DNA of 64,000 nt from contig CM000153.2 of assembly GCA_000004695.1 (NCBI GenBank), positions 480,001-544,000 on the forward strand, read 5' to 3'. This stretch comes from Dictyostelium discoideum. Taxonomy: Eukaryota. Positions 2,424 to 44,733 of the stretch are shown piece by piece (position 1 is the first letter of the stretch; the number at the start of each line of letters is the position of its first letter). The notes under the pieces are model-generated. The model ran no database searches, was not told the DNA's origin, and was given only the letters and a program-made list of their open reading frames with translations. Both the position numbers and the translations under genes were made by a program.

Positions 2424-2874
2424 AAACTTTAAATAAAATTTTTTAAAAAATAAAGAAAAGAATTAATAATTAGATTATTATTGTTTTAATTTTTTTATTT
2501 TTTTTTTTTTTTTTATAATTAACTGTTATCAAATTCTGGTTTTTCAAAATAAAATAATTCTTTCTTTTTATACAATTGCTTTTAATTCATCTATAAATCT
2601 AATTTGTGATCTAGTTGATTCTAGTTTTAAATAGCTAAATTGGTAATCTAAGAAAGTTGATTCTTTATTTTTTTTTATTTTTTTATTGAACACCAAAGTT
2701 ATATCTTTTTTTTATTTTTTGAGTTTTATCTTTTAACTTTTTTTATTTTTTGAATTTCTTTTTTTTGTAATATTTTATATTGGAATGCTAATAATTATGA
2801 ATTACTTCTTTAAAATATTTTAAAGAAGAGCAATATTTTATTTTATTATTATTATTATATTAATTATTTTTTTT

Positions 2875-3700
2875 ATTATTTGATGAGCAAGCCACATCAT
2901 TGTTATTATTATTACTAATATTATTATTATTGGTTTTATTATTATTTGATGAGCAAGCTACATCATTGTTTTTATTATTACTAATTATTATTATTGATTT
3001 TATTATTATTATTTGATGAGCAAGCAACATCACCGATAGTATTATTGTTGTTATTATTACTACTATTAATATTATTGGTTTTATTATTATTAATTGATGA
3101 ACGAGCTAAATCATTATTGGTTTTATTATTATTTGATGAGCAAGCTACATCATTTTTATTATTATTACTAATATTATTATTATTATTGATTTTATTATTA
3201 TTTGATGAGCAAGCTACATCTTTGTTATTATTATTACTAATATTATTATTATTGATTTTATTATTATTTGACGAGCAAGCTACATCATTGTTTTTATTAT
3301 TACTAATATTATTATTATTGATTTTATTATTATTTGATGAGCAAGCAACATCATTGTTATTATTATTACTAATATTATTATTATTGGTTTTATTATTAAT
3401 TGATGAGCAAGCTACATTATTGTTATTATTATTACTAATATTATTATTATTATAATTGGTTTTATTATTATTTGATGAGCAAGCTACATCATTGTTATTA
3501 TTATTACTAATATTATTATTATTGATTTTATTATTTGATGAAAAAGCAACATCGCCGATAGTATTATTGTTGTTATTATTACTATTAATGATAGTGTTAC
3601 TGTTACTATCACTACTATTATTAATTGATGAACAAGCTAAATCATTGTTGTTATTATTTTTATTTTTGGAATTTCTATTTCTAAGGTTATTATTTTTTGG
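2875..3700 (-). repeat. Coding minisatellite of about 12 copies of a roughly 66-bp unit encoding DVACSSNNNKINNNNISNNNNN; the array continues past the stop codon
   Basis: The core tgatgagcaagctacatc (the reverse complement encodes D-V-A-C-S-S) recurs on the plus strand at about 2882, 2948, 3015, 3096, 3144, 3207, 3270, 3335, 3401, 3475, 3537 and 3627. The stop TAG at 2983..2981 lies inside the array, and two further degenerate copies sit at 2875-2980. Confidence 0.85.
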
Positions 3701-6413
3701 AATTCTTAATGGATCTTCAGCCATTATAATATTGTCATACATATCCAAAAAAATCATTCTTTGATTATTATAAACTTCCCTCGTTTGTAAATATTCATCT
3801 CCTTTTGTAGAATGATTGTTTTCTACATTTTCAATTATTCTTTCCCTTTTAATTGACATAAAGAAACGTTCTGGTATTTTAAAGAAAATAATTAAAAAAA
3901 TAAATAATAGTGGTGCAAAAATTATTGTAACTAATGATATTACAATTTTTTTCCAATCTACTCGAGAACTTTCTTCTTGAGATTTGGTGTTATTGTTGAT
4001 ATATATATATTCTTTTTCTGAAATATTTTGGAATATTAAATTATACCTAGAGATATGAACTATTTGATTTGAAGTGACATTAATTTCAAATGTTGAGTTT
4101 ATTCTAGGTAAAAAGAAATTTAGCAATATATCATTTGCAATTGCACAACCTATTTCTGTTGAAAAACTATATGATATTGTGCATCTTTTCTGGCCATCAA
4201 TTATGAGACTTGTTTTTAGTGGATAAAAATTGAAACCGGATAGAGCTAATACCCAATGGTCCTTTTGATAATTGCTTATTGTGCCAACTTTATTTATTGT
4301 TGGTCCATTAAATGTTATATTAAAACTAATTGATTGATCCATTGAATTAATAATGCATTGTTCAACATGAGGACAAAAGTAATCTTCACTTTGACATGTG
4401 GAATCACATGAAAAAGAAGAATGATTTAAATATGTACAACCAAATTTATAATTACCACATTCAAGAGAAACATTTTGTTTTGAATGAAAATTTTCTCCAT
4501 CTATAAACACTATACTACCATTATTATCAAATGGTTTTGAAATTGCACCCTTAATGGTAGGTTTAATGGTTAATTCATATGGATCAGAAATAATACCACA
4601 ACAACAGATTGTAATTAGGTCACTTGTAAAATATGGTTCCTTTTTGGTTGTAATTTCATTGGAACTTATTTTTATTGGAGAAAGTGATTGGTTCGAGAAT
4701 GTAATAAATGTATTATTATAAAAGCCATAATTGTTAAATTCACCAGTACAGATTATGAATTCATCCTTTGTGTAACATGATTCTATAATTGGTTTTTTAT
4801 AATTAAATGTTGATTGGTATGATTTATTTTCAAAATTTATATTGTAACCTTTTTTACCACAACCTGGCACAATGAAAAACGAATAATCTAAATCATTTGA
4901 ATTTTTACCAATGAGTGTTCCCGTTGATTTAAATTCATCACCAAAATCTGAATAGATTGATAGTATCGGATTTTCTTTATTTTCATCATAACTTGAATTA
5001 AAAAATTTAACAATGCAATTTGATCCATTTACCATTGGTTGAGTAACAAACTTAGTTATGAATGATAAGCCAATAAAATAACTGTTTGATTGTTTTTCAT
5101 AAGATTTCACCGATATATTAATATAGGACATTGCTTCTGGAATGGTGAATGACATAACAGTCTCATTATCATTAATTTGAAGGTTTTGTAAACTAATTGG
5201 GATTTTATCATTAAATATAGTTACTGATCCTACTTCACCAAGACATTGGCCATATATTGTCAAGACACCATTGGAAATACTATAAGATGAAATAAGCGTT
5301 GAGTCATAGTTGAAATATATTTTGTTTTGGTTGGTAATACCATCTATGTTTACGGTAACTGGTAAGTTGTTATCTAAAATTCTATGAGCCATATAACAAG
5401 TAATATTATTTGGTGAAAGTGTAATAATTGAACATGGGTAATCTCCTATTTTAACCTCTGCTATAATAATTGAAGAATTCGATGTTAATCTTTCTCCATT
5501 GATATTAATTGTAGCATTTTTGTTTCTTGGAATACTATTAATTGAATTTAATACTGGAGGATATACTAAATCCATTTTATTTGAAGGTACTTTACTTGCA
5601 ATTAATTGAATTGTAAATGAAGTACAAAAGAATTCTGAATATTCAAAAATAAATTCAATATATTCATGATCATTTTTAATAATTTGTTCATTTTTAATTT
5701 TTTGATTGTTGATTAAAATTTCTTTTGGATACATTTCAGTACAGAAATTAGAGCCAATTAGTGTCACAGTTTTTTTATTTATTTCTACTTTTTCTATATA
5801 TGGATTTTGGTATGATGAATTATAAACAAACGAAAGACCAAAAATTTTAAAAAATCCACAACCACTTGGAAAAATCATTAAATATTCAGAACCGTTTTTT
5901 CCATTTGGAGATATCAAAAAATCGATTTTTTCATAATCATTTTGGAAAAGAGCGTTCTGATTTGTTGTTAATAAAAAATATGTAATATTGGATTGAAAAC
6001 TACCTCCTTTAGTTTCTGGTTTTAATTCTGGTTCAAAAATTGGTAAGATATTTGAAAAAATCCCTGGAAACTGTATACCATCTGCTGTTTTTTTTTCAGT
6101 TTGTTCACTTCCGAAAGCATGAAATTTAAAATTGTTATCAGTAGTTAAATTACACATCCTTAAATCACCATCAATATTACAATTGTAGTTGTATTCAAAA
6201 ATATCTACATTTTTTTCTTTGAATATATATTTGGAAATGTAAGATTCATTTACTTGATAAAAAAGTGTAATATATTCTTTATCTATTATATCTGTAAAAA
6301 AAATTTAAAATTAATATTTTACTTTTAATATTGATTAATCTAATTAATTACATACTCTCAAGAATTGAATATACTATTGTTATTAATAAAATTATTAACA
6401 AATAATATTTCAT
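2981..6413 (-). CDS. TgrB-like IPT/TIG-domain single-pass membrane protein (pair 1): exon 1 6356..6413 (signal peptide), exon 2 2981..6291; about 1122 aa
   Basis: The protein carries the signal peptide MKYYLLIILLITIVYSILE, followed by a phase-1 intron 6292..6355 (GTATGT donor). The ectodomain contains TIG-like motifs (FEPELKPETKGG, IPRNKNATININGERLTSNSS). The transmembrane segment is ISLVTIIFAPLLFIFLIIFF, and the cytoplasmic tail is built from DVACSS/poly-N repeats. It is a paralog of the gene at 38010-41263 and is divergently oriented to the TgrC-like gene at 7136. The family assignment comes from sequence resemblance to Dictyostelium Tgr (IPT/TIG) proteins. Confidence 0.75.
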
Positions 6414-7135
<722 letters not shown>

Positions 7136-9776
7136 ATGAAAATAATTTTAATTTCTTTACTTTTTTATTTATTTTCATTTGCTATTTCTTATGATGATGT
7201 CATTCCTTTGGGTAAATTGTTTTTATCATTTTTTTCATATCTCTTTTTTTTAATTTATTAATTATTTATTAATTATTTTTTTAGGTTATGAAAGTCACAA
7301 TGATTCTCTTGTGATTAGATATCGTGAAAGAGAAAATTATTATACAAATATTTCATTTTTATGGAATGGTAAAAGTCGTTATGATATGAGTTTTAATTGT
7401 GTTTTAAATAATACAATTAGAACTTGTACTTTACCAGTGAAAGAATCTGATCATGCCCAAATGTATTCAGAGAAAATATCTGCATGTACAGAAAATAATG
7501 GTACTTTTAAAAGGTGTGGTTATGATGTTGAGTTATTTTATTTTCCAAGTCCATTTTTAATTTCAGAGTTTAAACCAAAAACACGAGGTGGAAATACAAC
7601 ATTAAGTGGTTATTATTTAGAGTTAAAAGAAAGAATTTATGTTCCATTTGAAAGTCACTATAAAGATGATCAGTTTTATTATGCTGTAGAAGTATATACA
7701 ATTCCAGGTAAGTTTCAATCAAAAACACCAGATAGAATAAATTTAGTTTTAAAAGTTTTTCCAGGTTGTGGATACAGAACAATTATTTGGGAGAATCGTG
7801 AAAGATTAAATTTTACATATCAAGAGCCAAACATTGAAAAAATTGATATTAATCAATCATTTCTTGATATAACTGGTACAAATTTCTACAATCAATCAAT
7901 TTTGGTTTCTGTTAAAATTGATAATAATATTATTGATCCAAATGATATTATTTCAGTTGATTTTGAAATTATTAAATTAAAATTTAATTATTCAGATCCA
8001 TTCTCATCAAAATTGAATGTTCAAGTCGGTTGTTGTGATTATTGGTCAAATCAATTTCAAATTACATATCCACCAATTCCAATAAGTTCAAATAGTATTC
8101 CAAAATTAAAAGGTGGTTTATTAATAATCAATGGTAATAGATTAACTTCATCACCATCATTATCTAATAATATTAATATTTCAGTAACAGTTGGTGATTC
8201 AATTTGTTCAATTGTTTCGTCATCTTCAAATGAAATTAAATGTAATTTACAACCAATATCAAATTCAACATTTAATAATTCATCACCAATTGCTGTATCA
8301 ATAAATGGGGTTGTAAATACAAATACATTATTATTAAATTATGATATTCCATATATTACAACATTCTCTCAAGTAAATGATGAAATTCATATAATTGGTG
8401 GTTGTTTTGGTAATATTAATTCAACTCAAATTCATATCAATGATAAACAAGTTTCTGGCCAAATTAAATCAATTAATAATGATGAAACAATTTTAATATT
8501 AAAAATACAAAATCAAATTTATAATTTCAATCTTTCAATCGAATCAAATTCAATCAAATCAAATGGAATCAATGTAGATGTAAAATTGTATGCAAGTATA
8601 AATGAAATTCCATTGGTTGCTAATAAATTAATTAATTTTACATTATTTTATGTAAATTCAAGTAATATTAATTTAATACCAACAATTAAAATAATTAATG
8701 AAAAATCAAATCAAACAAGTAAATCAATTTCAACCAATGTAAATGAAAGTGTTGTATCATGTTCATTTTTAATTGAAAATAATTGTGGTATTATTAATTA
8801 TGAAATTGAAATTGGTAATCAAATATATCAATCATCATTTTCATATGAATCACCATTGATTAATAAATGTAATTTAAATTCAAATGAAATTGTTACTTGT
8901 ATTTGTAAAGGTTTTGTAAATAAATATAATGAAACAAGTATTTTTATTTCAAATCAATCAATAGCCCTTAGTAAAGAAATTAATAATAGTAGTTATGAAT
9001 CAATATCATTTCAAATGAAAGATGAGTATAATATTCTTGGTGAATTGTATTTAAATGTATGTGGTTTATTATCAAATAAAGTAATTATTAATACATTTCC
9101 AATTTTTAAAAATGTATCGATTCCTAACTTGTTTGGTACAAATGGTGGTAATATCATTATTATTGGTAAATATTTAAATAATAATACAAATATTACAATT
9201 GAATGTAATGGTGAACAAATTATTATAGAAAAAGAATGTAAATTAAAAAATAGTAGTACATCATTAGAATGCAACATTAATTTAAATGGTCCAAATGATA
9301 AAACTTGTAAATTATTATTTAATAATGATAATAGTATAGTATCAACATTTAATTTAATATACAAATCACCATCAATTAATCAAACCAGTATAATTAATTT
9401 AAAACAAGGAGGTATTTTAACAATTATTGGTAATGATTTCTATTATCCAATTGATAAAGTTACAATAATTGGTAATGGTAATGGTAGTGGTAATAGTAGT
9501 AGTTTAAATTGTAATGAAGCAAAGTATATTAATGATACAATTATAACATGTTTTATTCAAGCAACTAATTATACATTTAATAATATTAAAAATGGTGAAA
9601 TGATATTTATCAATGTTTCAACCAATGGTAAAAGTGGTATATCAAAAGTATTCAAATATTTAACTCAATCTGATGATATCCATCAATACTCTGATGCTAG
9701 AAATATCTTTCAAAATCTATTATTATCAATTTTAATCATATTAATCATTTCATTATTATTCATTTCAAATCTTTAA
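7136..9776 (+). CDS. TgrC-like IPT/TIG-domain cell-surface protein (pair 1): exons 7136..7211, 7285..9776 (855 aa)
   Basis: The signal peptide is MKIILISLLFYLFSFAIS, and a phase-1 intron follows it (GTAAAT donor at 7212, TTTTTAG acceptor ending at 7284). The ectodomain has FPSPFLISEFKPKTRGGNTTLSGYYLEL and IPKLKGGLLIINGNRLTSS motifs and many N-glycosylation sequons. The protein ends in the hydrophobic stretch LLLSILIILIISLLFISNL with no cytoplasmic tail, so it may be either GPI-anchored or a transmembrane protein. Confidence 0.75.
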
Positions 9777-11930: not shown

Positions 11931-15564
<3,634 letters not shown>

Positions 15565-21257: not shown

Positions 21258-24200
21258 TTAATTTAATCTTTCCATTTTAATTTTACCTAATTTCTTATTT
21301 TTAATTGTTTTTGATTTTAATTGTTTTTTAGAACAAATTGTGATACCACCTTTTTTATATTTTCTTACAACTAAAATGATGGTTAGAGAGATCAAAGCAA
21401 TAACAAAAATTACAACACCAGCTATGATTGCAGAGATTTGAGCTTTAGTGAGACCAAAGTTTGTACAAGTTGGATTAAGTTTTGAAGAAGCTGTGTTTAC
21501 TTCTAAAACCATAGTGAAATCTGGATCCAATTCTGCTTTTGTAGAGTAGTAGGGTACATTGATACCAATCAAAGAGTAACTTCTATAGGGTATATCGGTT
21601 GTTATTGGAGAGAGGAAAGAGTTTGTAGTTTTTGTTATTTTACTATTGATGAGTTGTCTTTTTAAGAAACGAGCATATAAAGCTTGACCATTGACTTGAA
21701 GTTTTAAATATTCCGAGCCTGTACTATCATCACCATACTCTTTACAAGAACAAACATCACTATGACTCGATGATTCAATAGAAGCTTCCATAATTAATTG
21801 TAGATAAGATTGATCATTCTTGAAGGAATATTTCGATAGACGGAAAGAGTATTTCAAAGAGGATGGATTCACTTTATAGGAGAGATCAGCAAAGGCTACA
21901 TTGAGGTCATTAATCTCCGATTGATCATAAAAACGTAAAGATGCTGTTAAATTTGTCAAGAAACCATTATCAGTAGCAAAGGTGGTTACATAACTAAAAT
22001 GATAGAGAGAGTTTGCATTACTTTTATTTGAGAATTTCCAACTTTTATCATTGAAACGATAAGATTTATAGACTGAACCGGTTTCATCGATTTCATTTAT
22101 ACCCACGACTGATATTAGAGAGGAGATACGATTACTAGTTTCCAATAGAATTGAGGGTTCCAATACATTGATATGGGGTGGATCCAATGCTATTGGAGTG
22201 GAAGTGCAATCGGCACCAGTATAACCTGCATTACATTTACAACCTACATCAGTATCACATTCACCTTTAATAATACCACCACAATCATTTGGACAAACGA
22301 ATGGATCACTATTATTGGTTTCATTTGGTATAAAAGGTGTTACCAAGAATTTATTACTTTCAATTCCATCAACGGTTACCTTTACAAAGAATTTAGAGCT
22401 AGTCGTATTGGTTGGATAAATGGTTAATAGTAAACCAGATTTAAATGTAACCTCTTGTTGAATGTAACCATTACCAAAATCAATTTCCACAAGTATTGAA
22501 TAATCCTCAGAGATTTGTGATTGAAGATTATGACCAAATATAGTTAGGGGAGTATTTGTAACTGGATTATAGGAGGCCTTTGAAATGATTGGTATTGCAC
22601 TATAGGTGGTTTGAATGAATGAAAAGGTTTTATTCAATTGATAAGCTGACCAACCCGCTATATTAAACATATTATCAGATACACCATAAACCGATAACAT
22701 TAAACCATCGGGTATACCAAAACCAAATGGTACCTCAATCTCTACGTAATAATAGGCTGTATGAATTGTTGAATTTGAATTTTGTAAACATTTGAAATCA
22801 TATTTCTCACCTCTTGAATTCTCTAAATAAACGATTGGTATATGATTTGAAGAAATACCAGATTGTGCATCTTCAATTCTGAATGAAACTAGCAATGTTC
22901 TATTCAATGAACCAACATCGATTGAAGTTTTAATTGAAGTTGTGAAACCATAAAGTAGTGGTGGAGTTACATCTAAAATCTTTTCGGTTGGACATTGAAT
23001 TCTAATGGAATATTTCATTTCAATCTCTGTTAAATTTGAACCTAACCAAGAGAATGGATTAATATAATCGGTTAAATCATTTAGTGTGGTACTATATTGT
23101 CCATCCATTCCCAACAATGATAGTGATGAAATTCTATAGGTATGTGATCTGCACCAAACTGAGCTACTCTTTGGAATTGAGAATTTAAATGTTGGAGTGG
23201 TGGGATTTGATAGTTGTTCCTCTGCATTAGCCAATGTGAAAAATGTAGAATAACCAACCAAATCAAATTCACTTGTAAATGTGATATTACCCGATTGGAA
23301 ACCACTTGTATCAAGTATTTGAATCTCCCATGCTATGGTGGTACCATCATCATTTTGATTTGGATACTTTATGCCATTCTCTGGAGTTCTTTTGATTTGT
23401 TTAACAATTGGTGGCATCGTATCATATTTAAGTTGTCTAATTGATTTGAAAACCGCTGCTTTATAACCCAACAATGAAGTCAATGAAGAAGTATCATACA
23501 CTTTACCAGATGAAATGATTTGATATTGAATGGCTTGATTCGATAGATAAGATGGTAAATAGAAATCAACTACATAACCTCTATATTGTGAACTCCATTT
23601 CATTAGTAAATAATTTGATGGTGATTTTAAAAATTTAGATGCTGAATTACTATTATAAAAGAATTGAAAACCAGGTGTAAATGATAAATCATTCAATGAA
23701 GGATTCTTTCCATTTAATGAATTTGAATATTTTAATACTACTGTATAAATATATCCATCACTATTACTTGATTCATCAAGTTTATCATTATTACTATCTT
23801 CATTATCTTCATTATTATTATTATCATCACTATCACTATTATTAATATTACTATTATTATTATTATTATTTGTTCCATTTGAACTTAATATAAAATCAAT
23901 TGCATAAATTGAACCAGGTTCAACTATTGGCCAATTTGTTTGATAAGGTACAATTTTTTGATTACCAACATTATCAATCAATATAATCTCATGATAATTT
24001 GGAAAGTTGAAATAATTTAAATACTTTTCAAAAGAACCATTAAAAACTGTACCTTTAACTAAATCTGAAGAGGTAAAAGTGACTTGACCAACTTTAATAA
24101 TACCAACACCTGATAAATTATCACATGCATCAATGTGTAAGATTGCATTCATATAATCCAATGTTTTAATTGACACTGCTAATAATGATGGTGGTTTTTC

Positions 24201-24748
24201 ATCGACATATCTATATTCATTTGAATATTGACGAATACTACTACTGGTGGTACCATTTCCAGGTATATAAGCCAAACCAGTTAAACTTGAGTCAATAATT
24301 TTAATAGGTTTCGTTAGATTGGATTGCATTGAAATTAATGGTACAGTTTCATCAACCATATATACTATGAATAATGAATCATTATGTGTATAATGTGGTA
24401 ATAATTTTGTAATTGAATGATTGAAATCATTTGGATTGTATGGATTTCTATAAACCATACCATAAGGATATTGATTGATTACAAAATCAAATGGTTGTAA
24501 TTGTACTTTTAACAATTGTCTATGATAATCCAATCTAAAGTTTATCATAAATAATTGTGCTGAACTATTATAAATTTCAGTTTGATAACCAACAGCTTTT
24601 CTTTGAGTAGTGATTTGAGGTAAACGAGAAACATTTTCAATTAAAATTTGTTTTGATCTATAATCTAAAAATTTTGATATTGTTGATGTATAATTTGTTT
24701 GAGTATTACCACCACTATTATCATCATCGCTACTATTACTAATATCAT

Positions 24749-24822
<74 letters not shown>

Positions 24823-27721
24823 TTATTATTATTACTACTGCTACTACTATTATTACTACTACTACTACTACCGTTATTACCACTTGAACTATCTGTTGGT
24901 AAAGTTTCATTTTGAGAACTGTTGTTGCTACTGCTACTGGTGGTGGTATTATTACCACTTGAACTATCTGTTGGTAAAGTTCCATTTTGAGAACTATCAT
25001 TATTAATAGTACTATCAGTGCTATTACTACTGCTACTACTATTACTATGATTAATGCCATCTATTGGTGTTGTTGTTGTTGTTGTTGTTGTATTACCATT
25101 ATCAGTACTATTAGTTATAATTGTACTATTTTCAGTTAATAATAATTTTGTAGATGGTAATGATAATAATGATGGTGGTGGAGCAGATAAAGGTGAAGGA
25201 TTTAAAGTTGTTTGAGGAATAGGTATAGATTCAAAAGAGAAATTAAAAGTATATAATTGTACATCAAACAAATCACTAAGATTATATTGCACATATTTTG
25301 AAGGATTTACATAACCATAATAACAAACTCTATTCTCATCACCATATAGGATATGTAATGTATTTGAATCCACACCATTGTATTTCATTCTTGGTGTTGC
25401 AAAATCATCTCTTAAATAATTGAAACGATTATTATTATTTTTGTTATTATTATCATCAATTGAAGTATCTGTAAGTTCAAATTCAAATTGTGAATATCTT
25501 GTACTATTTGTTAATGACACATTCTTACCATCATAAACCACTGTACCTTGATATGAAGTTAATTTAAATGTGAAATTAGTTGATTGTGATGAAACGAAAG
25601 GATTGATTAAATTAAAATATTGGTTTGGAATATAGGTATTGGATGGATATGAAACTTCCAATGTTATAGTTGGTAATCTTGATCCAAAATAAGTATAATT
25701 TTGATAACTATTACTACTTCCATTAACAACTGTATTTACAACAGATGGTGAAATCAATTTAAATATTACAATAGTTTGAATGGTTGTATAAGCACTACTA
25801 TTACTATTATTATTATTAAATGAAGAAGATTTATAATCTCTATAAGCTACAAACTTTGCATCATTTGATAAGAATTTAAATTTCTTTTCAATTGAGTAAA
25901 TTGGTGAAACTGTCTCTAAAACCATTGAATAATAAGCACCTTGAAGTTCTCTACCTGGTTGATCATATTCAAAACTACTTGATGTAAAAATATTATTTTG
26001 GAAGGAAGAAGAAGAAGAGGAGAAGGAAGAAGAATAAAAAGAAGAAGAAACACCTCTTTGATAAAATGATATAGCATCATATTCATATAATGGGTAATAT
26101 TGTTTATATGGATATAGTACACTAAATCTTGGTGATAGATAAAGTTTTTCAGGTGCAACTGAGCAAACAACCGATGGTATTGATGTTGAAAAATATCTAT
26201 CATTATATTGAACAATCAATAATCCTCCAATTGGTATTCTAGTACCATTTGGAAATGTATCATTACTATTTGGTATCCAATATTTAATAAATAAATTTGG
26301 TTTTGAATTTATATATTCAATTTGAACATTTGTTGAAAAATTTGCTAAATTAAATGTATAACTATCATTTTTTAATATATAATGTATTAAAAATTCACAA
26401 CCACCATTTAATTTTGAACTATTTGAATAAGTTTGATTTAAAATTGTATCTATTAAATAAAATAAAAAAATAAAAAAAATTAATAAATCAATAAATTAAC
26501 ATATTAAATAATAATAATATAATAATAATAATATAAATAATTACAATTAAATGGAAAATTTAAAAGAGGTGGTTCAGTTGAATTTGAAGAATCAGTATTA
26601 TTTATAAATGATGGACAACTTGTAACTTTAATTAAATCGAAATCAGTTCTACCGTTTAAGCATTGTAACTCCATTGAAATTGAATTTGTAAGGTTTCCAC
26701 AACCTTCACTACCAAAAAGATAAACGATTTGATTTTTATTTGATTGACCTTTTGAGTGAATTAATATTGATTTATATTGACATTGCATTGGAAATTCAAA
26801 TTGACATTTTGTATTATTGTTATTATTTTGTTGTAATATTCCTGTTGCTGTTGGAGTTGGGGTTGTTATTGTTGTTGTTTTAGTTGTTGATGATGATGAT
26901 GACGATGATGATGACGATGATGACGATGTGGATGTAGGTATTGATAAACTAATATTTATACATTGATTTATAGGTACATATATAGTTTGGCATAAACATT
27001 TTAAATAAACGCTAAATGTATTATTTTGTGGTGGAACTGTTGGTGTTGGTGTTGTTGTTATATTTGGTGTTAAAATTGGTGTTGTTGTTATATTTGGTGT
27101 TAAAGTTGGTGTATCTGTGGGATTATTACTATTGTCATCTATTTTCGGGCATTCAACTTTAAAATATTGAAAATTAATTGTGTTGTTTTTATTACTATTA
27201 TTTTTATTATTGCCATTGCTACTACTATTATTATTTTTATCATTACTTAAACATTCGAGTGTCTCATTTTTAAAGAAATCTGTACAATTATAATTTGAAA
27301 AACTCCTTATTGTGGTAAAGGTGCCTTGTGCTGTCTCATTATTTATTATGTTACTAAAAGGTATAAAAATGGATATAAATGGACATTCATCATCGCTGCT
27401 ATTATTATTATTACTACTATTATTATTATGCTTGGATATATGGTTATTTATTAAATTTGTACACTGACCCTCTGGAATCGTCATTAATTCCGTATAATTA
27501 CATTTGTTTTGAAAAATAAATTTATATACATTGATTTTATTACCACTACTACTACTACTACTATTAGTTCCATTACTATTACTGCTATTATTATTATTAT
27601 TAATATTATTATTATTACTATCTGTAGATGCTTTAACAAATATTGATGTTGAAAACACAAAAGATAATATTAGAAAAATATAAAATAAAAAGAATCCTCT
27701 TCTTTTATTTAATATTATCAT
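21258..27721 (-). CDS. Large mucin-like type-I membrane glycoprotein with an EGF-like domain: exons 26545..27721 and 21258..26449 (about 2122 aa)
   Basis: The first exon encodes the signal peptide MIILNKRRGFFLFYIFLILSFVFS and is followed by a phase-1 intron 26450..26544 (GTAATT donor, TTTAATAG acceptor). The ectodomain has Ser/Thr/Asn-rich tracts, including a poly-Ser run encoded by an (AGT)n microsatellite. An EGF-like module CPNDCGGIIKGECDTDVGCKCNAGYTGADCTS is followed by the transmembrane segment AIIAGVVIFVIALISLTIILVV and a basic tail. The total is 6369 nt, which is 2123 codons. Confidence 0.65.
24751..24822 (-). repeat. (ACT)n on the plus strand, equal to (AGT)n on the sense strand, about 24 units, encoding a poly-Ser tract inside the large glycoprotein gene
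   Basis: There is a perfect trinucleotide run actactact... between about 24751 and 24822. Confidence 0.9.
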
Positions 27722-38009: not shown

Positions 38010-41263
<3,254 letters not shown>

Positions 41264-42107: not shown

Positions 42108-44733
42108 ATGAAAATTATACTATTATTTGTTATTTTTTTTCTAATTTCCAAGATCTTCTCTCAAAATTTAGTCTATCCAATTGGTATGTTTTTATGTTTT
42201 TTATAATTTTTTTTTTTTTTTTTTTTTCCCAATCCTTATTCTTTTTTTATAATTAGGATATGAAACTCATATGGACTCCCTTGTAGTTAAATATAAAGGA
42301 TCTGATATCTATTATACAAATATTTCATTTATTTGGAATCATAAAAGTCGTTATGATATGAGTTTTAATTGTGTTTTAAATGATACAATTAGAATTTGTA
42401 CTTTACCAGTGAAAGAATCTGATCGAGAACAAATGTATTCAGAGGAATTACTTGCATGTACTGCAAGAAATGGTATATTTGTTATGTGTGGTTTTGATGT
42501 ACATTTAGGTTTTTTCCCAAGTCCATTATTAATTTCACCTTTTAAACCAAAGACTAGAGGTGGAAATACAACATTAAGTGGTTATTATTTAGAATTAAAA
42601 GAAAGAGTATTTGTTATATTTGAAAATAATTATGAACAAGATCAATATTATGGATCTAATAATTATTATAGAGTAGTGGGTTATTTTGAAACAAACACAC
42701 CTGATAGAATAAATTTGACATTGAGAGTCTATCCAGGTTGTGGAAATAGAACAATTATTTGGGAAAATGGTGAAACATATAATTTTACATATCAAGATCC
42801 AAATATTGAAAAAATTGATATTAACCAATCAATACTTAATATAACTGGTACAAATTTCTATAATCAATCAGTATTTGTTGCCGTTAAAATTGATAATAAT
42901 ATTATTGATCCAAATGATATTATTTCAGTTGATTTCGAAAATATTAAATTAAAATTTAATTATTCAGATCCATTCTCATCAAAATTAAATGTTCAAGTCG
43001 GTTGTTGTGATTATTGGTCAAATAAATTTCAAATTACATATCCACCAATTCCATCAAGTGTAAATAGTATTCCAAAATTAAAAGGTGGTTTATTAATAAT
43101 CAATGGTAATAGATTAACTTCATCACCATCTTCAAATAATAATAATATATCAGTTACAGTTGGTGATTCAATTTGTTCAATTTTTTCATCATCTTCAAAT
43201 GAAATAAAATGTAATTTACAACCATTATCAAACTCAACATTAAATAATTCATCACCAATCACTGTATCAATTAATGGTGTTGAAAATACAAATAAACTAT
43301 TACTATATTATGATATTCCACACATTAAAACATATTCTCAAGTCAATAATGAAATTCATATAATTGGTAGTTGTTTTGGTAATATTAATTCAACTCACAT
43401 TCAAATCAATGGTAAACAAGCTCAAAATCAAATAAAATCAATTAATAATGATGAAACAGTTTTAATATTAAAAGTACAAAATCAAATTTATAATTTTAAT
43501 ATTTCAATCGAATCAAATTCAATCAATGTAGATGTAAAATTATATGCAATAATTAATGAAATTCCATCGGTTGGTAATAAATTTATTAATTTTACATTAT
43601 TATATGTAAATTCAAGTAATATTAATTCAATAGCAACAATTAAAATATTAAATGAACAATTAAATCAAACAATCCAATCAACTTTAACAACTTTTATTGA
43701 AAGTGTTGTATTATGTTCATTTTTAATTGAAAATCTTTGTGGTATTGTTAATTATGAAATTGAAATTGGTCATCAAAGATTTCAATCATCATTTTCATAT
43801 GAATCACCATTGATTAATAAATGTAATTTAAATTCAAATGAAATTGTTACTTGTATTGGTAAAGGTTTTGTAAATAGTAATGAAACAATTATTATTATTT
43901 CAAATCAATCAATAACATTTAATAATGAAAGTAATAATAATAATGATAAATCAATATCATTTCAAATGAATGAAGAGTATATTCTTGGTGAATTGTATTT
44001 AGATGTATGTGGTTTATTATCAAATAAAGTAAAAATTGATACAATACCAATTTTTAAAAATGTATCGATTCCAAACTTATTCGATACCAATGGTGGAGAA
44101 ATCATTATTTTTGGTAAATATTTAAATAATAATACAAATATTACAATTGAATGTAATAATGAAGTAATAGAAAAAGAATGTAAATCATATAATAGTACAT
44201 CATTAGAATGCAACATTGAATTTAATGGTCCAAATGATAAAACTTGTAAATTATTATTTAATAATATTGATAATAATAATAATAATAATAATATAGTATC
44301 AACATTTAATATTATCTATAAATCACCATCAATTAATCAAACTAGTATAATTAATTTAAAACAAGGAGGTATTTTAACAATTATTGGTAATGATTTCTAT
44401 TATCCAATTGATAAAGTTACAATAATTGGTAATAATGGTAATTGTAGTGGTTGTGATATTTTAAATTGTAATGAAGCAAAGTATATTAATGATACAATGA
44501 TAACATGTTTTATTCAAGCAACGAATAATACATTTAGTAATATTAAAAATGGTGAAATGATATTTATCAATGTTACAACCAATGGTAAAAGTGGTATATC
44601 AAAAGTATTCAAATATTTAACTCAATCTGATGATTCTCATCAATACTCTGACGCAAGAAATATCTTTCAAAATCTATTATTATCAATTTTAATCATATTA
44701 ATCATTTCATTATTATTCATTTCAAATATTTAA
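42108..44733 (+). CDS. TgrC-like IPT/TIG-domain cell-surface protein (pair 2): exons 42108..42183, 42257..44733 (about 850 aa)
   Basis: The signal peptide is MKIILLFVIFFLISKIFSQNLVYPIG, followed by a phase-1 intron 42184..42256 (GTATGT donor, AATTAG acceptor). The protein is roughly 75-80% identical to the 7136-9776 product and shares the same C-terminal hydrophobic end LLLSILIILIISLLFISNI. Confidence 0.75.

Follow-up and report, generated by a model that had tools for sequence, protein, structure and literature searches.

Two hypervariable segments in tgrI-family surface proteins of Dictyostelium discoideum are candidate specificity determinants

Introduction

Why do two paralogous membrane proteins share long identical runs of residues and differ strongly in short blocks between them, and does such a mosaic mark a recognition surface? 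The question is raised by two genes, here termed Ca and Cb, which lie in a stretch of 64,000 nucleotides of the Dictyostelium discoideum genome (GenBank assembly GCA_000004695.1, contig CM000153.2, positions 480,001 to 544,000 of the forward strand). This stretch is referred to as the window, and all coordinates given below are those of the window. An original prediction, made from the sequence alone, had described both genes as TgrC-like and had regarded the mosaic as typical of diversifying selection or patchy gene conversion at recognition surfaces.

Kin recognition in Dictyostelium is credited to a single gene pair, tgrB1/tgrC1. The two encoded proteins are polymorphic binding partners, and their genes are paired and divergent (PMC12745789). 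At this locus the two genes share a promoter, full-length tgrC copies are accompanied by truncated tgrB copies, and recombination mosaicism and local hypervariable windows are found (PMC12745789; bioRxiv 10.1101/2025.10.22.684067). The tgrA, tgrH, tgrI and tgrO genes constitute a fast-duplicating clade which is separate from TgrCDK and whose functions are unknown (PMC12745789, PNAS 2025). These tgrAHIO subfamilies are large and dynamic, the tgrI subfamily itself being numerous and fast-duplicating, and many of their members are only weakly expressed during development (PMC12745789).

Here, we report that Ca and Cb are tgrI-family genes and that the blocks in which they differ belong to two hypervariable segments, HVR1 and HVR2, which recur throughout the family. 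We favour, at a probability of roughly one half, the reading that the specificity of a tgrI ligand is determined by HVR1 and HVR2 as segments of its surface, that this ligand works now, or once worked, with a tailed partner protein, and that the segments were diversified by duplication, recombination, near-neutral replacement and selection on a few codons. Fast evolution of the tgr family as such is already published; in the literature searched by the names tgrI, tgrH and tgrO, we found no HVR map, no function and no cassette parallel of the kind presented below for tgrI.

Results and discussion

Two hypervariable segments on a conserved scaffold

The differences between Ca and Cb are significantly clustered. 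Permutations were performed over residues 35-298, in which 64 of the 264 aligned residues differ. The differences fall into 81 runs compared to 97.8 ± 5.9 in permuted data (p = 0.003), the variance of their counts in 20-residue windows amounts to 12.2 instead of 3.4 (p = 0.0002), and the longest identical run spans 27 residues instead of 16.4 (p = 0.02). Clustering also holds over the whole mature protein. The mosaic of identical runs and variable blocks is thus real and the variable sites are not uniformly distributed. In patch 2 (residues 149-172, 7653-7724), 17 of 24 residues differ. For patch 1 (residues 82-111, 7452-7541), with 14 of 30 residues differing, an almost complete replacement turned out to be an overstatement. 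Clustered differences are expected in any protein with uneven constraint, and a visually striking mosaic between paralogs alone shows neither a ratio of nonsynonymous to synonymous substitution rates (dN/dS, omega) above 1 nor gene conversion.

We aligned 28 full-length proteins of the family, taken from strains of D. discoideum and from D. citrinum and D. firmibasis. Entropy within the mature protein peaks at both patches (H of approximately 1.1-1.8 bits compared to a mean of 0.60), and the mosaic thus characterises the whole family rather than the pair Ca/Cb alone. The mean identity within clades drops to 65-70% in HVR2 and to 74-86% in HVR1, compared to 90-95% elsewhere (extents of both segments are given in Table 1). 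Neither segment contains an indel in any of 27 copies, while other variable spots of the gene do. Invariant framework residues are interspersed among the variable positions, including cysteines C93 and C103 in HVR1, and in HVR2 variable and conserved positions alternate with an i+2 periodicity, which suggests strands with one variable face. Codon 89 (7473-7475 in Ca) encodes ten different amino acids in the 27 copies and has no synonymous variant. The idea that the gene as a whole is exceptionally polymorphic was dropped, since Ca is 92.1% identical in nucleotides to the ortholog at the corresponding position in strain ACTFIR and hence diverges no more than the flanking genes do (88-94%).

The AlphaFold2 model of residues 27-380 of Ca, with a mean predicted local distance difference test score (pLDDT) of 85.8, consists of consecutive beta domains, and Foldseek matched it best to ectodomains made up of several Ig/IPT domains, for example those of plexin (IPT), contactin and NCAM. 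HVR1, which lies in the N-terminal domain, is modelled as a short helix followed by a beta-hairpin (residues 89-96 and 99-106) bearing the two cysteines. For HVR2, the model is less confident (pLDDT 64-75) and shows a mostly irregular conformation. As far as a recognition surface had been postulated, the mosaic was traced to segments that are hypervariable throughout a family of extracellular proteins of the Ig/IPT type, which is compatible with such a surface.

Evidence for positive selection in a small class of codons

The codon-based analyses drew on the window and 12 further loci, which provided 18 full exon-2 coding sequences (CDS) and 27 N-terminal ones, and employed the likelihood model MG94xHKY, which accommodates the strong AT bias (kappa 2.9). 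Nei-Gojobori counting (NG86) yielded ratios of 1.13 for patch 1 and 0.93 for patch 2 between Ca and Cb. Family-wide, the ratio of nonsynonymous to synonymous differences per site (pN/pS) obtained by the same counting is 0.7-1.2 in the HVRs compared to 0.37-0.5 elsewhere. By maximum likelihood (ML), the global omega of the family is 0.35, and it decreases to 0.16-0.17 in residues 216-360 at a normal synonymous rate (alpha 1.3-1.55).

Several of the codon-based results speak against a recognition function as proposed above. The two HVRs taken as one block have an omega of 0.42-0.61, significantly below 1 (0.16-0.37 elsewhere), and the pairwise ML estimates between Ca and Cb are 0.41-0.48 (0.48 for patch 1), with silent sites saturated in patch 2. 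Per-site tests of the fixed effects likelihood (FEL) type, which had low power with 18 CDS, revealed no significant positive site; the two sites with beta > alpha at p < 0.1 are about what is expected by chance. Tested by itself, HVR2 gave no significant sign of positive selection in a site-class test of the M1a/M2a type (p = 0.18). In addition, the synonymous rate of HVR2 is 2.7-2.8 compared to 1.35 in the flanks (likelihood-ratio test, p of approximately 4e-4 to 8e-4), an excess that is not explained by selection on amino acids. Most of the HVR variability is indistinguishable from neutrality, and relaxed constraint explains most of it equally well.

Below the level of whole blocks, a small class of positively selected codons is supported. 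A first M1a/M2a-like test of residues 27-215 with a single synonymous rate gave a likelihood-ratio statistic of approximately 34, which we discounted as confounded, the HVRs having a higher synonymous rate than their flanks. When only the HVRs were tested and were given a synonymous rate of their own, the test was borderline for 18 sequences (p of approximately 0.05) and reached a statistic of 12-19 for 27 sequences, with HVR1 alone at p = 0.004. The fit to 27 sequences assigns 3-4% of the HVR codons (K89 and T164) an omega of 3.1-3.7, approximately 40% an omega of 1 and approximately 57% an omega of 0.15; among single codons, codon 89 stands out as the best candidate for positive selection (posterior of approximately 1.0). 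The null distribution was calibrated by 220 simulations from the fitted null model, in which discordance between the trees of HVR1 and HVR2 was also taken into account. For HVR1 on its own tree, the observed value of 10.96 exceeds the 99th percentile of 8.35, and for HVR1 and HVR2 on the N-terminal tree, the observed 15.33 exceeds the null maximum of 12.65, corresponding to an empirical p < ~0.01 for the selected class. The test is an in-house approximation with fixed neighbour-joining branch lengths, and recombination within the HVRs, which lies outside the model, can inflate site-model tests of this type, a further point against our reading.

The proposed diversifying selection was accordingly retained at the level of a site class, comprising about two codons with an omega of approximately 3, and not at the level of the patches, for which neither the NG86 ratios of 0.93-1.13 nor the family ML estimates below 1 indicate it. 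A dN/dS below 1 at the patches, named beforehand as the outcome that would refute the original prediction, is what was obtained at block level. Codon-based site models, suggested along with the original prediction as the way to check it, gave a divided answer: negative in the FEL-like version, positive for HVR1 and negative for HVR2 alone in the M1a/M2a-like version.

Could relaxed constraint then account for the whole pattern? Exposed hairpins and loops might tolerate almost any side chain, and the HVRs would reflect ordinary rate heterogeneity without any role in specificity. The block and pairwise omega values below 1, the 40% of HVR codons that fit omega = 1 next to 55-60% that fit approximately 0.15, the FEL-like tests and the result for HVR2 alone are all in line with this explanation. 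It sits less well with segments that remain free of indels, unlike the other variable spots of the gene, and that strictly keep their framework positions and two cysteines. Nor does it account for a codon with ten amino acids and no synonymous variant, for the rejection of M1a in the simulation-calibrated test or for the fact that the N-terminus of the partner protein is hypervariable as well (see below). As the sole cause, we consider relaxed constraint a serious but somewhat doubtful explanation.

Recombination within the family, but no conversion tract detected between Ca and Cb

The pairwise homoplasy index (PHI) is significant (p <= 0.001) in each of the two clades of the family, A and B, and in all sequences together, and the nearest relative of Ca switches along the gene. 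Patchy gene conversion as originally proposed was therefore borne out in so far as recombination within the family is concerned, but a conversion tract between Ca and Cb was not detected: in a Sawyer-type permutation test, the longest concordant run covers 14 polymorphic sites (p = 0.19), and the same type of test found no globally significant fragment shared between clades A and B (best global p of 0.21).

A scenario in which Ca and Cb recently homogenised their identical runs while the variable patches escaped would draw on the C-terminal part of the proteins. There, silent differences in codons for identical amino acids fall to 0.04 (residues 541-855) from 0.14 in the N-terminal part, the synonymous divergence dS falls from 0.37 to 0.09, and over residues 721-757 Ca and Cb are mutual nearest relatives. 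Besides the negative permutation tests, the clades of Ca and Cb each include copies from other strains, and outside the two genes the loci are far apart, with partner genes that are only about 70% identical at the nucleotide level and intergenic regions that cannot be aligned. Moreover, the conserved runs are kept in all clades and species at an omega of 0.16 and a normal synonymous rate, and hence reflect purifying selection and not recent homogenisation. Conversion between these two genes is thus a very improbable source of the mosaic.

A different possibility is that the HVRs are simply older or faster-mutating DNA, i.e. old haplotypes that are kept by balancing selection and shuffled among tandem copies or fragments, or a local mutation hotspot, without recurrent directional replacement. 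The raised synonymous rate of HVR2 with saturated silent sites in patch 2 would be expected from this, as would the proportion of synonymous differences (pS) in the HVRs, which in either clade is roughly double the value of the remaining sequence. The copy closest to Ca in HVR2 among those sampled is 14% divergent, compared to 2-5% for the flanks. Sub-blocks of HVR2 recur in differing combinations, PHI is significant, and other strains have tandem arrays that include partial copies. The synonymous excess, on the other hand, was measured on a tree that may not hold for HVR2, and homoplasy caused by recombination would inflate both rates. For HVR1, the excess is not significant (p = 0.1-0.2), each HVR has only about 17 synonymous sites, and no donor cassette was identified in our sample. 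We regard this explanation as quite unlikely.

A divergent partner gene with a variable N-terminus

Ca shares its promoter region with a divergent IPT/TIG gene, termed partner a, and the two form a pair (pair a; 2981-6413 on the minus strand and 7136-9776 on the plus strand). Partner a has a signal peptide, followed by an ectodomain and a transmembrane segment, and its cytoplasmic tail of about 270 amino acids carries DVACSS repeats. Within the pair, only partner a carries a tail; its identity to Ca is approximately 27% over the full length. The tail is encoded by a 66-bp tandem repeat (10.9 copies, 79% matches, 2843-3553, coding on the minus strand) with the repeat unit ...NNNNDVACSSNNNK..., and similar DVACSS repeats are found in the partner of Cb, partner b. 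A protein search with partner a returned five matches, none of which bears a subfamily name; the partner may belong to tgrH. Across strains, the most variable part of the partner is formed by its N-terminal ~160 amino acids (~5880-6291 in partner a), which are 38-68% identical compared to 80-98% elsewhere. A variable N-terminus of the partner would fit a co-diversification with the HVRs of the tgrI protein.

The same divergent pairing was found at loci L001-L003, L006, L010 and L012, in other strains and in D. citrinum. In the second pair of the window (pair b), Cb is accompanied by a paralog of partner a with about 52% amino acid and about 70% nucleotide identity to it. Partner b carries a frameshift of one nucleotide and a small deletion near 40085-40095 and is probably a pseudogene. 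Truncated or frameshifted partners beside an intact tgrI gene are frequent and also occur at loci L001, L002 and L003. This brings in a further objection to the reading that we favour: with many partners broken and many tgrAHIO genes weakly expressed (PMC12745789), the pairs may not be ligand-receptor units at all.

The promoter regions of the two pairs could not be aligned apart from low-complexity matches. The region of pair a contains a microsatellite, (ATT)~69 at 6885-7087, which is missing from that of pair b. In an untrimmed blastn comparison of the two loci, AT-rich low-complexity matches dominate, and only the two long alignments of the genes are informative.

How could such a pair work? 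We suggest that the HVRs may be solvent-exposed specificity determinants for heterophilic binding, and that the likeliest binding target would be the equally variable N-terminus of the paired partner. By analogy with TgrC1/TgrB1, the tgrI protein would act as ligand and the tailed partner as receptor. Birth-and-death duplication, together with recombination between tandem copies, may have supplied the diversity of the segments, with near-neutral replacements at most of the variable codons and recurrent positive selection at K89 and T164. The clades of Ca and Cb would have split before the sampled D. discoideum strains diverged, without recent mutual conversion.

The parallels to TgrB1/TgrC1 are manifold. 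Both systems consist of a divergent pair of distantly related IPT/TIG membrane proteins with a short common promoter and one tailed member, both show localised variation on a conserved scaffold and recombination among copies, and in both it is often the tailed gene that degenerates, next to an intact second member. Heterophilic binding with allele-specific effects on cell segregation and strong co-expression in development, which mark TgrB1/TgrC1, would be predictions for the tgrI pair. The two systems differ in subfamily and chromosome (tgrBC is located on chromosome 3) and in strength of selection: the tgrI blocks have an omega below 1, whereas sliding windows of tgrB1, tgrC1 and tgrB2 reach dN/dS > 2 (bioRxiv 10.1101/2025.10.22.684067).

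A comparison can also be drawn with recognition systems beyond the Tgr proteins. The peptide-binding residues of the major histocompatibility complex (MHC), Hydractinia Alr and Botryllus FuHC are polymorphic recognition domains on Ig-like scaffolds. Short hypervariable segments on a conserved beta-sandwich, a minority of codons with omega > 1, recombination or conversion among tandem paralogs and raised silent diversity near the variable sites are shared with the tgrI proteins. In contrast to these systems, to which tgrI has no homology, the signal of positive selection in tgrI is much weaker and confined to about two codons.

If our reading is correct, residues 82-111 and 141-172, especially codons 89 and 164, are candidate specificity determinants for tgrI, which raises the question whether recognition diversity in Dictyostelium draws on more than one Tgr pair. 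A bolder version, which we consider unlikely, holds that the tgrI gene on chromosome 4 and its tailed partner constitute a second polymorphic ligand-receptor module, independent of tgrB1/tgrC1, with HVR1, HVR2 and the hypervariable receptor N-terminus as the seats of specificity. Orphan tgrI ligands that remain intact, such as the one in pair b, would in that case be retained because displaying a ligand without the receptor is advantageous. A cheater logic of this kind has already been proposed for extra tgrC copies.

Identity, gene models and genomic surroundings

Both genes display the features of the Tgr (tiger) IPT/TIG family, i.e. an exon for the signal peptide, an Ig/IPT-TIG ectodomain and a C-terminal membrane anchor. 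In Ca, the Pfam domains Ig_TgrO1 (residues 118-204) and TIG (residues 292-373) score above the gathering thresholds, and both are also present in Cb. The two proteins end in a hydrophobic anchor and have no cytoplasmic tail. They are 80% identical in amino acids and about 86% in nucleotides, and the peptides that had first drawn attention to them align without gaps. In the family tree, Cb is placed in clade B, apart from Ca.

The nearest named relative is TgrI3 (Tiger protein I3, Q54RE1), which shares 92% of its residues with Ca over 96% of the TgrI3 length and 80% with Cb; no other named Tgr protein appeared among the search matches. TgrI3 resembles Ca in its Ig_TgrO1 and TIG architecture, its location on the same chromosome and its divergent pairing with a TIG partner. 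It differs from the window genes in that Ca and Cb do not carry the name 'Tiger' in the sources, and Cb, about 80% identical to both Ca and TgrI3, belongs to a separate clade. TgrC1 was not among the matches of the protein searches or of a profile search with the family alignment, and TgrB1 was likewise not reached by the profile search. With TgrI3 as nearest named relative and a published tree that parts TgrAHIO from TgrCDK, the genes are assigned to tgrI and, on this indirect evidence, probably do not group with TgrC. Their locus lies on a contig of 5,450,249 bp, which corresponds in size to chromosome 4 of strain AX4, and hence outside the tgrBC locus, which is located between wacA/chdB and DDB_G0280717 on chromosome 3. 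The label 'TgrC-like' was given up and would apply only loosely, in terms of architecture.

Table 1 Coordinates of the tgrI-family genes, their hypervariable segments and their partner genes in the window.
Feature	Position	Strand	Remarks
Ca, tgrI-family gene, 855 aa	7136..9776	+	Spliced translation equals AX4 XP_639151.1 / Q54R96 exactly
Ca exon 1 (signal peptide)	7136-7211	+	
Ca intron	7212-7284	+	
Ca exon 2	7285-9776	+	
HVR1 of Ca, residues 82-111	7452..7541	+	Family entropy 1.1-1.5 bits; patch 1 of the original prediction
HVR2 of Ca, residues 141-172	7629..7724	+	Highest family entropy, 1.4-1.8 bits; contains patch 2; inside Ig_TgrO1
Most conserved block, residues 216-360	7854..8288	+	Holds the run DPNDIISVDFE...ITYPPIP; entropy 0.04-0.5 bits
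Cb, second tgrI-family gene, 850 aa	42108..44733	+	Spliced translation equals AX4 XP_639162.1 / Q54R85 exactly
Cb exon 1	42108-42183	+	
Cb exon 2	42257-44733	+	
HVR1 of Cb	42424..42513	+	Gap-free alignment to Ca residues 82-111
HVR2 of Cb	42601..42696	+	Gap-free alignment to Ca residues 141-172
Partner a, divergent IPT/TIG gene, 1122 aa	2981..6413	-	Equals AX4 XP_639150.1 / Q54R97 exactly
Partner a exon 1	6356-6413	-	
Partner a exon 2	2981-6291	-	
Shared intergenic (promoter) region of pair a, 722 bp	6414..7135	.	Common to partner a and Ca
Partner b, paralog of partner a	38010..41263	-	Two open reading frames in different frames; probable signal-peptide exon ~41200-41263

The peptides quoted in the original prediction are located in the open reading frames (ORFs) 7311..9776 and 42271..44733 on the plus strand. 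A GTG start at 7311 was rejected as an artefact of ORF calling, the ORF 7311..9776 being part of exon 2 of Ca. The AX4 model of Ca features canonical GT..AG splice sites and a signal peptide. A newer assembly annotates the gene as KAM9943442.1 with 837 amino acids and the start MSFLWVNC..., a 5' model that differs from XP_639151.1 (7136-7330).

The window has a G+C content of about 20%, and apart from the two tgr pairs it contains kinase-like genes and genes with IF-2B, NUDIX, adaptin, kinase/WD40 and MFS domains. Two kinase-like ORFs with matches to the Pkinase N-lobe flank pair a (707-2423 on the plus strand and 12690-13712 on the minus strand). The order kinase, partner and tgrI gene is retained in strain ACTFIR (locus L003), and in D. 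citrinum (L011) a kinase gene adjoins a tgrI gene. Between the two pairs lies an ORF of 1653 amino acids (21258-26219, minus strand) for another large surface protein, in which the domains DUF7743, DUF7035 and DUF7034 are accompanied by a cysteine motif of the EGF-like type and a transmembrane segment at the C-terminus.

The number of tgrI copies is strongly strain-dependent. Strains ACTFIW (L007-L009, on a 253-kb contig) and ACTFIZ (L005) harbour tandem arrays of many tgrI copies, with several copies per 22 kb and intact partners often missing, while AX4 has isolated pairs.

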